This document shows positions 1 through 47,820 of a DNA stretch of 64,000 nt, piece by piece. The number at the start of each line of letters is the position of its first letter. Position 1 is the stretch's first letter. The translations under genes were made by a program, and so were the position numbers. The notes under the pieces were generated by a model. That model saw only the letters and a program-made list of their open reading frames with translations. It did no database searches and was not told where the DNA came from. Source of the stretch: Eledone cirrhosa (lineage: Eukaryota); assembly GCA_964016885.1 (NCBI GenBank), contig OZ024753.1, positions 7,874,001 to 7,938,000 of the forward strand, in the 5' to 3' direction.

Positions 1-92
1 TATATATATATATTTATATATTTATATAATCAACTTTTCAAATACAAGTCGATGTTGAACGGTATGTCAAATCTATAAAACTGTCTATATTG

Positions 93-158
93 TATTTTGT
101 CTGAGGAAGGCATAGCATATTGTTAATATGATATCCCTGAAATATATATAATGAAATA
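93..158 (+). ncRNA. Minimal type-I hammerhead ribozyme motif (Penelope-like element terminal repeat remnant), copy 1
   Basis: TATTTTGT(93-100)-CTGAGGA(101-107)-stem II AGG..CATATT/gtt/AATATG..CCT-GAAA(139-142)-T-ATAT-A-TA^ATGAAATA(151-158). Stem I is 8 bp including 2 G-U pairs; palindromic tetraloop in stem III; predicted cleavage after 150. Island 74-200 is flanked by (TA)n. Confidence 0.7.
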
Positions 159-199
159 AATATGATTTTATAAATATAGTTTCCATTTATTTAATATCG

Positions 200-217
200 T
201 ATATATATTTATATATT

Positions 218-17697: not shown

Positions 17698-20080
17698 AGT
17701 CACAGGGAAGAAGACATTTACACTAATCTAAAACACGTCACAGGGAAGAAGACGGTTACACTAATATAAAACATGTCACAGGGAATAAGACAGTTACACT
17801 AACCTAAAACATGTCACAGGGAATAAGACAGTTACACTAACCTAAAACATGTCACAGGGAAGAGGACAGTTACACTAACCTAAAACACATCTCACAGGGA
17901 AGAAGACAGCTACACTAACATAAACACGTCACAGGGAATAAGACAGTTACACTAACCTAAAACACGTCACAGGGAAGAAGACAGCTACACTAACCTAAAA
18001 CACATCACAGGGTAGAAGACAGTTACACTAACCTAAACATAATCTCACAGGGAAGAAGACAGTTACACTAATCTAAAACATGTCACAGTGAAGAAGACAG
18101 TTACACTAACATAAAACACATGTGACAGTGAATAAGACAGTTGCACTAACCTAAAACACGTCACAGGGAATAAGACAGTTACACTAACATAAAACATGTC
18201 ACAGGGAAGAAGACAGTTGCACTAATATAAACCACATGTCACAGGGAAGAAGACAGTTGCACTAACATAAAACACATGTCACAGTGAATAAGACAGTTAC
18301 ACTAACCTAAACCACATGTCACAGTGAAGAAGACAGTTACACTAACATAAACCACATGTCAGTGAAGAAGACAGTTACACTAACATAAACCACATGTCAG
18401 TGAAGAAGACAGTTACACTAACATAAACCACATGTCAGTGAAGAAGACAGTTACACTAACATAAACCACATGTCACAGGGAAGAAGACAGTTACACTAAC
18501 CTAAAACGCATGTCACAGGGAATAAGACAGTTACACTAACATAAAACACATGTAAAAAGGAATAAGACAGTTACACTAACCTAAAACACGTCACAAAGAA
18601 TAAGACAGTTACACTAATCTAAAACACGTCACAGTGAAGAAGACAGTTGCACTAACATAAACCACATGTTACAGGGAAGAAGACAGCTACACTAACATAA
18701 ACCATATGTCACAGGGAATAAGACAGTTACGCTAACATAAACCACATCACAGGGAAGAAGACAGTTACACTAACCTAAGACACATGTCACAGGGAAGAAG
18801 ACTGTTACACTAATCTAAAACATGTCACAGAGAATAAGACAGTTACACTAACATAAAACATGTCACAGTGAAGAAGACAGTTACACTAACCTAAAACACG
18901 TCACAGGGAATAAGACAGCTACACTAACATAAACCACATGTCACAGGGAAGAAGACAGTTACACTAACATAAACCACATGTCACAGGGAATAAGACAGTT
19001 AGACTAACATAAACCACATCACAGGGAAGAAGACAGTTACACTAACCTAAGACACATGTCACAGTGAAGAAGACAGTTACACTAACCTAAAACATGTCAC
19101 AGGGAATAAGACAGTTACACTAACCTAAAACACGTCACAGGGAATAAGACAGCTACACTAACATAAACCACATGCCACAGGGAAGAAGACAGTTACACTA
19201 ACATAAACCACATGTCACAGGGAAGAAGACAGCTACACTAACATAAAACACATGTTACAGGGAATAAGACAGTTACACTAACATAAACCACATGTCACAG
19301 GGAATAAGACAGCTACACTAACATAAACCACATGTCACAGGGAAGAAGACAGCTACACTAACATAAACCACATATCACAGGGAAGAAGACAGCTACACTA
19401 ACATAAACCACATGTCACAGGGAATAAGACAGTTACACTAACATAAAACACATGTCACAGGGAATAAGACAGTTACACTAACATAAACCACATGTCACAG
19501 GGAAGAAGACAGCTACACTAACATAAAACACATCACAGGGAAGAAGACAGCTACACTAACATAAACCACATGTCACAGGGAATAAGACAGTTAGACTAAC
19601 ATAAACCACATGTCACAGGGAAGAAGACAGCTACACTAACATAAAACACATGTCACAGGGAAGAAGATAGTTACCCTAACATAAAACATGTCACAGTGAA
19701 GATGACAGTTACACTAACCTAAAACATGTCAAAGGGAATAAGACAGTTACACTAACATAAACCACAAGTCACAGTGAAGAAGACAGCTACACTAACATAA
19801 ACCACATGTCACAGGGAAGAAGACAGCTACACTAACATAAACCACATGTCACAGGGAAGAAGACAGCTACACTAACATAAAACACATGTCACAAGGAAGA
19901 AGATAGTTACACTAACATAAAACATGTCACAGTGAAGAAGACAGTTACACTAACCTAAAACATGTCACAGTGAAGAAGACAGTTACACTAACCTAAAACA
20001 TGTCACAGGGAAGAAGACAGTTACACTAACATAAAACACATGTCACAGGGAATAAGACAGTTACACTAACATAAAACACA
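17698..20080 (+). repeat. 2.4-kb minisatellite, 38-40-bp unit (~60 copies)
   Basis: GTCACAGGGAAGAAGACAGTTACACTAACATAAAACACAT with variants. Confidence 0.97.
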
Positions 20081-20199
20081 TTTAACAATTCAACAAATTC
20101 TAAAAAAATAACCAAGAAATGAAAATAATGGAAAGGAACAAAAAAAAAAATCAATAAAAAAAAAATTAATAGTATGTTTTTTTAATATATATCTTAGTG

Positions 20200-22451: not shown

Positions 22452-23275
22452 GAACACCAGCTTTGACTATCAACACACGGACTATGAAACTAGTACCAAC
22501 TTTGACTATCAACACACCAACTGTGGAACTAGTACCAACTTTGACTATCAACACAAGAACTGTGGAACTAGTACCAACTTTGACTATCAACACAAGAACT
22601 GTGGAACTAGTACCAACTTTGACTATCAACACAAGAACTGTGGAACTAGTACCAACTTTGACTATCAACACAAGAACTGTGGAACTAGTACCAACTTTGA
22701 CTATCAACACAAGAACTGTGGAACTAGTACCAACTTTGACTATCAACACAAGAACTGTGGAACTAGTACCAACTTTGACTATCAACACAAGAACTGTGGA
22801 ACTAGTACCAACTTTGACTATCAACACACCAACTGTGGAACTAGTACCATCTTTGAGTATCAACACACGACTGTGGAACTAGTACCAACTTTGACTATCA
22901 ATACAAAGACTGTGGAACTAGTACCAACTTTGACTATCAATACAAAAACTGTGGAACTAGTACCAACTTTGACTATCAACATACAAACTGTGGAACTAGT
23001 ACCAACTTTGACTATCAACAGATGGACTGTGGAACTAGTACCAACTTTGACTATCAATACAAAGACTGTAGAACTAGTACCAACTTTGACTATCAACACA
23101 AACTGTGGAACTAGTACCAACTTTGACTATCAACACACGACTGTGGAACTAGTACCAACTTTGACTATCAACACACGACTGTGGAACTAGTACCAACTTT
23201 GACTATCAACACACGACTGTGGAACTAGTACCAACTTTGACTATCAACATACAAACTGTGGAACTAGTACCAACC
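22452..23275 (+). repeat. 39-bp minisatellite (~21 copies)
   Basis: TGTGGAACTAGTACCAACTTTGACTATCAACACAAGAAC, period 39 (22561->22600); an RTE-type tail follows at 23355-23404. Confidence 0.96.
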
Positions 23276-29691: not shown

Positions 29692-30705
29692 TCATCATCA
29701 TCCTCATCATCGTTTAACGTCCATCTTCCATGCTAGTATGGGCTGGACGGTTTTGTCCCACTTGTAGCGAGATTGGATGCCTTTCCTAACACTAACCACA
29801 TTTACAGTGTGGACTGCGTGCTTTTAGCTGTGTCATCTACATGGCCACTTTACAGTTTGCACTGGGTGCTTTTAGCTGTGTCATCTACATGGCCACTTTA
29901 CAGTGTGGACTGGGTGCTTTTAGCTGTGTCATCTACATGGCCACTTTACAGTTTGCACTGGGTGCTTTTAGCTGTGTCATCTACATGGCCACTTTACAGT
30001 TTGCACTGGGTGCTTTTAGCTGTGTCATCTACATGGCCACTTTACAGTTTGCACTGGGTGCTTTTAGCTGTGTCATCTACATGGTCACTTTACAGTGTGG
30101 ACTGGGTGCTTTTAGCTGTGTCATCTACATGGCCACTTTACAGTGTGGACTGGGTGCTTTTAGCTGTGTCATCTACATGGCCACTTTACAGTTTGCACTG
30201 GGTGCTTTTAGCTGTGTCATCTACATGGCCACTTTACAGTGTGGACTGGGTGCTTTTAGCCGTGTCACCTACATGGCCACTTTACAGTGTGGACTGGGTG
30301 CTTTTAGCTGTGTCATCTACATGGCCACTTTACAGTGTGGACTGGGTGCTTTTAGCCGTGTCATCTACATGGCCACTTTACAGTGTGGACTGGGTGCTTT
30401 TAGTCGTGTCACCTACATGGCCACTTTACAGTGTGGACTGGGTGCTTTTAGCTGTGTCATCTACATGGCCACTTTACAGTGTGGAATGGGTGCTTTTAGC
30501 TGTGTCATCTACATGGCCACTTTACAGTGTGGACTGCGTGCTTTTAGCCGTGTCATCTACATGGCCACTTTACAGTGTGGACTGGGTGCTTTTAGTCGTG
30601 TCACCTACATGGCCACTTTACATTGGACGGAAATGGGTGGATGGAGTAGGGGCTTTGGGGTAGGGTGTATATTGGGTTAAGAGGTACCTACTGACTTTAG
30701 ACTTA
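29692..30705 (-). mobile_element. RTE-tailed SINE containing a 48-bp x ~17 minisatellite (29801-30622)
   Basis: Unit TTTACAGTGTGGACTGGGTGCTTTTAGCTGTGTCATCTACATGGCCAC; flanks collinear with the copy at 46107-46560. Confidence 0.9.
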
Positions 30706-40517: not shown

Positions 40518-40643
40518 ATGAGAAATAAAAGATGAAATAGAAAGATAGAGAAGAGAAAGGAACAGGAAAAGCATATTTTGAGAAATATGCTTTTCCTGCT
40601 CCTTTCTCTTCTCTATCTTTCTATTTCATCTTTTATTTCTCAT
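40518..40643. repeat. 126-bp palindrome (61-bp arms) next to (TA)n, followed by a degenerate hammerhead core
   Basis: Arms 40518-40578 / 40583-40643; CTGATGA-AAGG-TTAAGACT-CCTT-T-CTAAC at 40652-40680. Confidence 0.9.
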
Positions 40644-41532
40644 TCTATCTTCTGATGAAAGGTTAAGACTCCTTTCTAACTATATCAAGCATAAAACTAG
40701 TATATTTCTGCATTATACTCCAATCATAACCTACTCACACCACAAGTTGATCTTTTTATATGACCGTATAGTTTGAGTACTCTTGACTTGACGATTGATG
40801 TCATTGACCAAACACCCTAATCATCTAGCCATGGGGCTTCTTTAATATTCAGCATTGGGACGATGGTACTGTATATGCCAATTTTACTATAAATTTTCTG
40901 AATAACTTCTTAAAATTTTACTTAAAAACATGCATTTTAAACGTATTTGTTACAAAATCAGCATCTAAGAAATAACACAGAGAGCAATCTATAACTCCTA
41001 AGAATGGCTTCTGTAGTGCTTAGATTAAAACCAAATAGAAAATAGGCTTTTGTATGATTATATGATGAATATCTAGATATAAAACTGTATATGACTAACA
41101 CACACGCAAATATTTTCAAACGTATGTCTATGTTTATATATAACTATAAGTATGTATGTACAGATTATGTATTTTTGGACCAAATGACAGAAAACAATAA
41201 AAAAATACATAAGTAGATTTGATTTCACTGTTAATCCTATGATTATAAACTTCTGATTGACAGTCAGCATAAACCAAGCAAAACCAATCAGAACTAAGAT
41301 AGAAGACTACAAGATTGATTGGCACTCATCAAAATTTTGGCCAGGCCTTTCAATTAAAGATTAACTGTAGGGGAGTGGCTAATAGTTCAGGTATAGTGGT
41401 ATTCATTATTTACTACAAGGTCTACACTGAAGAATGTATGAATTTCTCTATGTATCTTCATGATGATTTTCTGTGATGGAACCTAATATTGTTAGTTGGT
41501 TTTGTTCATGGGTTTGTCTCAATGCAATTCAG

Positions 41533-41710: not shown

Positions 41711-41887
41711 TTTGAAATTAGAAATAGAAGCTTTCTCCATATTTTTGACTAAAGAAATTTTAGCCTGATAGTGGGGTTTAGAACCCATTTTTTCCATTTT
41801 CTAAGAGGGTTCTAAACCCGACTATCAGGCTAAAATTTCTTTAGTCAAAAATACAGCGAAAGCTTCTATTTCTAATTTGTTTTCAAA
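41711..41887. repeat. Long inverted repeat (~75-bp arms, 20-bp spacer), possible foldback MITE
   Basis: 41711-41786 vs 41807-41887. Confidence 0.88.
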
Positions 41888-45931: not shown

Positions 45932-45985
<54 letters not shown>

Positions 45986-45997
45986 TGATCTATATTA

Positions 45998-46062
45998 TAT
46001 TTTATCTGATGAAAGCGCACCATAATTTGACTTGGTGTCTTTGAAATATGTATAATGAAATA
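45998..46062 (+). ncRNA. Minimal type-I hammerhead motif, copy 2 (homologue of 93-158)
   Basis: TATTTTAT-CTGATGA(46006-46012)-AAG.GCACCA/TGGTGT-CTT-T-GAAA(46043-46046)-T-ATGT-A-TA^ATGAAATA; flanks match 74-200; follows (TA)n. Confidence 0.7.
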
Positions 46063-46106
46063 AATATGGTTTTATAAATATAGTTTCCATTTGTTAATAT
46101 ATCGTA

Positions 46107-46560
46107 TCATCATCATCATCGTTTAACATCCATATTCCACGCTTGCATGGGTTTGGACAGGAGTTTTCCCACTTGAGGCAAGAGTGGTTGTCTTGCTCGC
46201 ATAGGACTGTCTGGCGGGTTTTCTACGGCTGGATGCCCTTCCTAACACCAACCACGTTTACAGTGTGGGGCTGGGAGGTTTTTACTGTGTTACCTACACG
46301 GCCACATTACAGCGTGGACTGTGTGTTTTGTTGTCGTGACGCCTACACGACCTCATTTGCTTCGGACTGGATGTTGTGGTACCAACATAACTTTACATTG
46401 AAAGGGGTGGTGTGGATGGGGTGGGGGTAGTAGGACGGGGGTGTATTTTGTTAGAGGTGCCTACTGACTGTAGTAGGTTTCACTTTGTACTTAGGTAAGG
46501 CAGGTCTTCTGTATTACTGTGTAGTGCCAAAGATCTCGGTCCAGTGACATTTTCTTGGAG
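46107..46560 (-). mobile_element. RTE-tailed SINE, long variant without large expansion
   Basis: Two diverged copies of the TTACAG.GTGG.CTG unit that is amplified at 29801 and 47000. Confidence 0.85.
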
Positions 46561-46614: not shown

Positions 46615-46803
46615 CTTGTTTCTACTTTTGGCACAAGGCCAGCAATTAACCAGTACATTACTGGTACTTTATTTTATCGACCCCGTACGGATGAAAGGCA
46701 AAGTTAACCTTGGCGGGATTTGAACTCAGAATGGCAAGGGCCATAACTCATGCGTCAAAGCATGGCGTCGGACCCTCTACTGATACTGTCAATCCACCGC
46801 CTT
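46615..46803 (-). mobile_element. Full-length SINE-B (~190 bp), 14-bp TSD
   Basis: TGTGTGTATAAATA at 46601-46614 and 46804-46817; Pol III A- and B-box-like motifs. Confidence 0.94.
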
Positions 46804-46997: not shown

Positions 46998-47820
46998 TGT
47001 AAAGTGGTTGTGTAGGAGACATGGTAAAAAGGCTCCCAGTCCACACTGTAAAGTAGTTGTGTAGGAGACATGGTAAAAAGGCTCCCAGTCCACACTGTAA
47101 AGTAGTCATGTAGGAGACACAGTAAAAAGGCTCCCAGTCTACACTGTAAAGTGGTCATGTAGGAGACATGGTAAAAAGGCTCCCAGTCCACACTGTAAAG
47201 TAGTCATGTAGGTGACACGGTAAAAAGGCTCCCAGTCCACACTGTAAAGTAGTCATGTAGGTGACACAGTAAAAAGGCTCCCAGTCCACACTGTAAAGTG
47301 GTCATGTAGGAGACATGGTAAAAAGGCTCCCAGTCCACACTGTAAAGTAGTCATGTAGGAGACACAGTAAAAAGGCTCCCAGTCTACACTGTAAAGTGGT
47401 CATGTAGGAGACATGGTAAAAAGGCTCCCAGTCCACACTGTAAAGTAGTCATGTAGGTGACACGGTAAAAAGGCTCCCACTCCACACTGTAAAGTAGTCA
47501 TGTAGGAGACATGGTAAAAAGGCTCCCAGTCCACACTGTAAAGTAGTCATGTAGGAGACACAGTAAAAAGGCTCCCAGTCCACACTGTAAAGTAGTCATG
47601 TAGGTGACACGGTAAAAAGGCTCCCAGTCCACACTGTAAAGTAGTCATGTAGGAGACATGGTAAAAAGGCTCCCAGTCCACACTGTAAAGTAGTCATGTA
47701 GGTGACACAGTAAAAAGGCTCCCATTTCACATTGTAAATGTGGTTGGTGTTAGGAAGGGCATCCGCCTGTAGAAACCTGCCTGGGGCAGTTCTGTACGAG
47801 TGAGATATGGTATCCCGACC
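46998..47820 (+). repeat. 49-bp x ~15 minisatellite within RTE-tailed SINE
   Basis: Period 49 (47024->47073); runs into GGTTGGTGTTAGGAAGGGCATCC at ~47742. Confidence 0.93.

Follow-up and report, generated by a model that had tools for sequence, protein, structure and literature searches.

Two putative Penelope-like insertions in an Eledone cirrhosa contig carry a type I hammerhead motif that appears to be selected in its source lineages

The window analyzed here is the whole 64,000-nucleotide stretch of Eledone cirrhosa DNA from contig OZ024753.1 (assembly GCA_964016885.1, positions 7,874,001 to 7,938,000). It is AT-rich and laden with microsatellites, and the genome is 3.0 Gb in size. An initial annotation had proposed that it contains two homologous hammerhead islands, called copies A and B here, and alignment of 74-200 with 45978-46106 bore this out (82.8% identity over 134 nt, E 4e-32). 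The type I core of CUGANGA, GAAA, and NUH is present in both copies, as CTGAGGA in copy A and CTGATGA in copy B with GAAA and TA in each, and the predicted cuts behind an AUA triplet fall where they had first been placed, after 150 and 46054. A type I descriptor gave exactly two sites in the window, copies A and B, and none in each of 30 locally shuffled windows. The suggested check with Rfam covariance models did not recover the motif: no hammerhead family was found at E ≤ 10 on either copy, and none was among the matches listed for the whole window (best 150 of 238). Monomer folding was no better than that of shuffled sequences (z 0.55, −1.43, 1.42, and −0.01).

Table 1 Features of the two hammerhead islands (positions within the window)
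Feature	Positions	Strand	Basis
Copy A, putative 5'-truncated 3' end (pseudo-LTR, tail-less) of Hydra-type Penelope-like element family A	28..200	+	Matches 3' end of L105; bordered by (TA)n at either side
Copy A stem I 5' strand, with outer helix at 74-81, a middle helix, and the proximal 8 bp at 93-100	74..100	+	RNAfold of 71-180; duplex test
Copy A core C3-A9, CUGAGGA	101..107	+	Sequence
Copy A stem II with 3 bp, a C.C mismatch, more pairs, and a GUU loop	108..138	+	RNAfold, RNAalifold, comparative
Copy A GAAA 139-142, TATATA 143-148, TA 149-150	139..150	+	Sequence
Copy A stem III strand 142-149, which is self-complementary, with AUA triplet and cut predicted after 150	139..150	+	Fold
Copy A stem I 3' strand; outer helix weakened by a G>A variant at 165	151..172	+	RNAfold, comparison of copies
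Copy B, putative 5'-truncated 3' end of sister family B	45978..46106	+	96-98% identity to L040 and L141
Copy B stem I 5' strand, with outer helix at 45978-45985 and the proximal 8 bp at 45998-46005	45978..46005	+	RNAfold
Copy B core CUGAUGA 46006-46012, stem II 46013-46042, GAAA 46043-46046	46006..46054	+	Sequence, fold
Copy B wobble-palindromic stem III strand (TATGTA), TA 46053-46054, AUA, predicted cut after 46054	46006..46054	+	Fold
Copy B stem I 3' strand	46055..46076	+	RNAfold

Several details of the first description had to be revised. Copy A begins not at 74 but at about 28, as judged by its match to the 3' end of a full-length element (L105), and it terminates 49-50 nt past the predicted cut, as other tail-less copies do. 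The flanks that the two islands share consist for the most part of the two strands of a long stem I. The segments between CTGANGA and GAAA had been called largely unrelated, whereas the two stem II sequences are alignable homologues (18 of 31 positions identical, a value as high in 10 of 5000 shuffles). Pairing of AAG with CTT in copy B is the RNAfold register of that copy, but the family register has a C.C mismatch at pair 4, and a C>T change in copy B makes pair 3 G.U. Among 217 distinct copies, GTCCTT was found in 30 and GTCTTT in 3. Copy B meets (TA)n through a microhomology of TATA, a type of junction seen 26 times in the genome, and has a high-copy repeat behind it. No family ORF, UTR, or tail was found elsewhere within the 64 kb. 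From sequence comparison, both islands are taken to be 5'-truncated tail ends of two sister Penelope-like element (PLE) families inserted in (TA)n; both are tail-less and solo, and probably idle.

The window contains other repeats. At 40520-40720 a 106-nt hairpin precedes a CTGATGA that lacks a GAAA partner; loci L039, L197, L239, and L292 hold similar repeats, and this segment is possibly the end, now decayed, of a different repeat with a hammerhead. The inverted repeat at 41718-41875 is near-perfect over 158 bp and MITE-like, and it had a match in 1 of 293 loci. Two high-copy short repeats, which we take to be SINE-like, lie at 46107-46330, adjoining the 3' end of copy B, and at 46616-46800 (present in 72 and 60 of the 293 loci, respectively). 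Minisatellite arrays are found at 799-1830 (44 bp unit), 17699-20081 (40 bp), 22456-23274 (39 bp), and 29796-30622 (48 bp), and the array that begins near 47010 is similar to the 48-bp unit in reverse.

One exact pattern for this hammerhead type gave 58,927 genome matches, as against 2 for the reversed control. The resulting density is one per 51 kb, or about 1.3 copies per 64 kb, and thus two copies in one window are ordinary and the 46-kb spacing that had been remarked upon carries no meaning. A cis dimer between copies A and B is also unsupported, as the two belong to separate families, lie 46 kb apart, and are spaced as expected by chance. Near-identical relatives of the islands numbered at least 43 and at least 47 matches, with 40 candidates scored per search. 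These relatives often form inverted pairs and end in (TA)n, and their 5' ends are variable. The genome holds at least four further families of type I hammerhead (L065:5676, L054:2963, L062:5771, and L050:2749), which differ in their stems and have stem III strands that are self-complementary or nearly so.

The proposed link to the terminal repeats of PLEs was confirmed, since the 3' end of family A lies 1.34-1.46 kb behind an RT/GIY-YIG ORF and that of family B lies behind a sister ORF. Walking upstream along family A reached a C-terminal ORF piece in L062, and when that piece was used as query the best 150 of 61,053 candidates were all 96-100% identical. Ten family A copies with long open frames were taken from these matches, and each of the ten holds a frame of 745-761 codons. 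In five of the ten the hammerhead is found both before and after the ORF, that is, in both pseudo-LTRs. In these five copies the unit from hammerhead to hammerhead is 3741-3859 nt, with the first cut site 186-187 nt upstream of the ATG and the second 1340-1459 nt downstream of the stop. Family B has a sister ORF upstream of its 3' end, with aligned blocks of about 64-84% identity and, in L142, 73% over 555 aa. Its hammerhead was seen downstream of the ORF only, and no intact family B frame was found among 14 stretches. ORF pieces of remoter elements of the same type are present at L062:1614-2706 (− strand) and L144:1329-2327 (+ strand), the latter 36% identical to family A, and so several such lineages coexist. 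Four family A copies with frames of 619-745 codons lie within 240 kb at G000:C6:26558011-26798503, possibly a local duplication or a cluster of source elements.

The 737-aa family A protein was modeled by AlphaFold2 (pLDDT 89.7), and the best Foldseek match of the model was telomerase TERT (E 6.5e-10). Pfam and PDB sequence searches with the 737-aa ORF gave no match; a weak GIY-YIG Pfam match was obtained with 7 of 62 alignment members and is absent from the query itself. The best named protein match was an Argonauta protein (39%). The motifs present are RWR at 37, DKT at 118, YRDD at 352, and CNCRDRSKC (CxCX5C) at 596, followed toward the C terminus by YVGST at 630, CDLC (CxxC) at 694, and CRH (CxH) at 721. 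As judged from the model, the motifs, and the weak Pfam matches, the source would be an EN+ Penelope-like element with one ORF encoding a telomerase-like RT with a GIY-YIG endonuclease at the C terminus. The motif set points to the Hydra clade for families A and B, an assignment made from motifs, and the unit length departs from the Hydra-clade trait of being under 3 kb. The Naiad clade was ruled out by the C-terminal position of the endonuclease motif and the presence of DKT.

Conservation of the core was assessed with anchors in the flanks only, the core being unused, which gave 45,004 genome matches versus 89 for the control. All 12 core bases were present at exact spacing in 37,609 of the 45,004, and thus the test of genomic homologues that the initial annotation had named as a possible refutation did not refute the motif. 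Position N7 takes all four letters and stem II varies freely, while the core is fixed. The 3' UTRs of families A and B (1.4-1.8 kb) share one long block of 133-157 nt at about 85% identity, and in nine of nine comparisons it lies over the hammerhead. This block reaches about 50 nt beyond the cut. In the tail region the two families are 88% alike, and in the ORF DNA they are 75% identical.

The 217 distinct copies were reduced to 30 representatives, 28 of which were aligned (alignment A2). The two dropped were I1, whose 5' flank is an inverted copy that makes a false perfect stem I, and J2, whose 3' end has given way to other sequence. Since the rows of A2 were picked by their core, its invariance there is circular; the non-circular tests are the flank-anchored counts and the family B copies reached without the core. 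The named pairs hold in 95.4% of cells across the 28 representatives, compared with 88.9% in shuffles (none of 500 as high), and double changes occur in 43 cells versus 15.6 (none of 500), whereas pairs with a double change do not exceed the shuffles in number (8 vs 6.2; 73 of 500). In controls with the strands slid, 38-52% of cells pair. RNAalifold recovered the identical stem II register unprompted, and on a tree built without stem II, pairs 2, 3, 5, and 6 change state four to five times each and stay paired in 27-28 of 28 representatives. The stem III strand is self-complementary at 8 of 8 positions for the TATATA, TATGTA, and TGCGCA loops, as found in 29 of the 30 representatives, with the change from TATATA to TGCGCA occurring in family D. 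Stem I varies almost only on one side.

Among 30 family B copies reached without the core, core mismatch was 3.3% versus 0.9% in the 3' flank, and the core was intact in 23 of these 30 and in 19 of 20 family A copies. The inserted copies show no selection, which acted on the retrotransposing lineages. The proposal of structure-preserving divergence under selection in the source elements is thus upheld by the repeated compensatory changes of stem II and by the hammerhead block being the sole long conserved block of the 3' UTR; these comparative tests, all made on sequences, support it well.

The motif departs in places from a textbook hammerhead. Helices I and II surround the core and helix I is open, as in type I; stem II covaries and stem I has competing folds. 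The usual G-C at pair 10.1-11.1 is nearly absent, the 28 representatives having A-U (16), G-U (6), G-C (1), or no pair (5). All 30 representatives have C at stem II position 4, where it faces a mismatch and is never paired. Stem I is extended: 8 bp, a bulge, 5-6 bp, and then TATAAAAC with GTTTTATA. The stem I arms of a given copy pair better with each other than with swapped arms (mean −12.7 vs −9.7 kcal/mol, a mean that includes the artefactual I1), and support for the arms is weak in families C and D. In a competing fold given by both RNAfold and RNAalifold, the stem I 5' strand pairs with the GAAA core, and the ensemble probability of the proximal stem I is below 0.1 in 17 of the 28 representatives.

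The ends of the insertions fall into two classes. Of 181 copies with a post-cut anchor, the tail was absent in 121 and present in 60. Mapped ends lie at +47 to +50 and mostly at +137 to +140 behind the cut, giving a tail of about 90 nt, and 98 of 111 mapped tail-less ends run into TA-rich sequence. The tail is on exactly one arm in 39 of 43 inverted insertions, and the pseudo-LTRs occur in direct and inverted arrangement with the 5'-truncated inverted copies typical of PLEs. In a single case, L187:1526-1657 (− strand), the element's own post-cut sequence, beginning exactly at the cut site, is repeated in inverted orientation as the 5' flank, as would be expected from a template switch at stem I.

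Cleavage was sought in the insertions as 5' junctions at the predicted cut. Direct (TA)n junctions there numbered 77 per 37,481 post-cut anchors (0.21%), compared with 26 per 19,809 (0.13%) at a control TATA site; both are rough rates, as the anchors differ slightly. The count was confined to direct (TA)n junctions, and inspection of 30 showed several to be full motifs in decay. The cut site had no accumulation of 5' junctions among the genome-wide (TA)n junctions. With 0.21% set against 0.13%, cut RNA leaves no clear footprint. The cDNA almost always spans the cut site, and thus the template would be either uncut or re-ligated.

The reading we favor, and think likely to be right, is that the islands are truncated insertions of sister PLEs and that the predicted type I hammerhead cuts as a dimer in the source elements and is idle here. 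A transcript of tandem elements would carry two hammerheads, the 8-nt palindromic stem III strands of which could pair and so complete two cores. The completed cores would cut after AUA to release a unit-length RNA, with the long stem I holding the cut ends together and favoring re-ligation. The dimer cut follows a proposal made for PLEs in general (PMC4209133). With uncut or re-ligated RNA as template, reverse transcription likely begins internally, at two sites behind the hammerhead, and would usually halt early to leave islands such as copies A and B. Note that the minimal hammerheads of PLEs cleave poorly in vitro, even as dimers (PMC4209133). In the anole PLE, as given in the available parts of the report (PMC11167929), hammerhead mutants left in vitro insertion unaffected, no RNA reads ended at the cut, the hammerhead cleaves once protein is added, and two internal start sites explain the tail. 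The template read across the cut in our copies matches this element, in which cleavage is protein-assisted and dispensable for insertion in vitro.

The same observations could be accommodated if the fold were selected mainly as an element that binds and positions the PLE protein by two RT start sites, with cleavage rare or dispensable. Insertions ending about 50 and 138 nt behind the cut, templates read across it, a conserved block that reaches about 50 nt past it, and a tail 88% alike in families A and B would all be explained, and Frangieh et al. found cleavage to be dispensable in vitro (PMC11167929). We nevertheless consider this improbable, because the catalytic bases are fixed while N7 and the letters of stem II change, and the anole hammerhead does cleave with protein added (PMC11167929). 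Much less probable is that the islands are non-autonomous retrozymes spreading via small circular RNAs. They are short, non-coding, and of very high copy number with a type I hammerhead, and a 2026 preprint, in the part available, derives retrozymes from the pseudo-LTRs of PLEs. However, linkage to the ORF largely refutes this explanation, since longer copies run into a UTR of 1.3-1.7 kb and then the ORF. In addition, 5' ends vary and are often inverted, copies A and B are solo insertions, and the repeating unit is 3.7-3.9 kb instead of a tandem unit of 150-400 nt.

The least probable account, to which we give very little credence, is that the pairing is neutral, with shared ancestry and AT-rich palindromes giving chance hairpins around a relic core. 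That single copies fold no better than shuffles is in keeping with it, as is the finding that inserted family B copies keep the core no better than the 3' flank (3.3% vs 0.9% mismatch, n = 30). The compensatory changes recurring on the tree, the shuffle and slide controls, and 85% identity within an otherwise unalignable UTR all argue against it.

The hammerheads of families A and B are real, selected in their source lineages, and of a kind already described. A 2014 study of PLE pseudo-LTRs reported hammerhead families with covariation and a dimer-type stem III (PMC4209133), and in 2021 Hydra-clade elements with hammerheads were described, including Hydra-1_Obim of Octopus bimaculoides (PMC8557442). 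Like the Hydra-clade elements (Craig et al. 2021, PMC8557442, available in part), those of E. cirrhosa have a single ORF with a C-terminal endonuclease, DKT, a CxCX5C linker, and CxxC and CxH motifs, insert at (TA)n, carry the hammerhead near the 3' end, and often have a loose pair at the base of stem II. In contrast to those elements (PMC8557442), the unit here is 3.7-3.9 kb where Hydra elements are generally under 3 kb, RWR replaces RWK, and stem III is an even 8-nt palindrome where most of the listed Hydra hammerheads have 3-4 bp plus a loop of 1-3 nt. The Hydra-1_Obim hammerhead sequence (PMC8557442) is, by eye, unlike that of families A and B, and the Eledone elements differ from Hydra-1_Obim and other Hydra PLEs in their intact ORFs and tens of thousands of copies.

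The hammerhead variants whose helix III is small and palindromic (Cervera and de la Pena 2014, PMC4209133) are likewise type I motifs in pseudo-LTRs with a long helix II and dimer-type stem III, and many covarying families per genome, mostly as solo truncated copies, were seen there as well. Compared with the variants given in the parts of that study to hand, the Eledone motif has A10.1-U11.1 instead of G-C, no clearly unpaired base between 9 and 10.1, a stem I of 8 bp with extensions to about 20 bp rather than the 4-5 bp of the minimal type, and the invariant C at stem II position 4, mismatched in 30 of 30 representatives. The Poseidon element PAc of Anolis (Frangieh et al. 2024, PMC11167929) shares the two 3' ends that define a tail behind the hammerhead, the template read across the cut, and AT-rich targets. 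PAc belongs to a different clade, a tail of 30-40 bp is reported for PLEs there versus about 90 nt here, and the hammerhead here lies 186 nt before the ATG without overlapping the ORF start (PMC11167929). Non-LTR retrozymes and the type I hammerheads of newt and axolotl (Cervera and de la Pena 2020, PMC7229834) have the same 1-bp stem III and palindromic tetraloop, and the axolotl families, near 60,000 copies each, resemble ours in copy number. In contrast to what the available text describes (PMC7229834), the Eledone motifs are the ends of autonomous coding elements, not tandem units of 150-400 nt, and the canonical loop 1-loop 2 contacts are not evident.

Our literature search found nothing on this hammerhead PLE family, and the available part of a 2026 octopus repeat annotation does not mention ribozymes. 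No report was found of a mismatched, invariant C in stem II, of the long stem I, or of the 90-nt tail, although Lunse et al., on PLE hammerhead dimers, may describe them. A more elaborate scenario, which we regard as possible but doubtful, is a lineage with a regulated, ligation-prone hammerhead. The competing fold would keep the monomer off, the stem II C would make a new tertiary or protein contact, and the stem I of about 20 bp would clamp the cut ends, so that the 3.8-kb unit could circularize and the circle be copied from two starts 90 nt apart. If so, the tens of thousands of young copies with their many subfamilies and intact ORFs would amount to a natural mutational scan and offer a ready means of studying what the PLE hammerhead does in vivo.

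The function of PLE hammerheads was called unclear by Craig et al. (2021, PMC8557442, in the part available). The two islands of the window are ordinary truncated insertions among about 59,000. The genome in which they lie offers comparative evidence for selection on the motif in a lineage that was apparently active recently, evidence at genome scale that the cDNA of insertions almost always spans the cut, and intact source elements.
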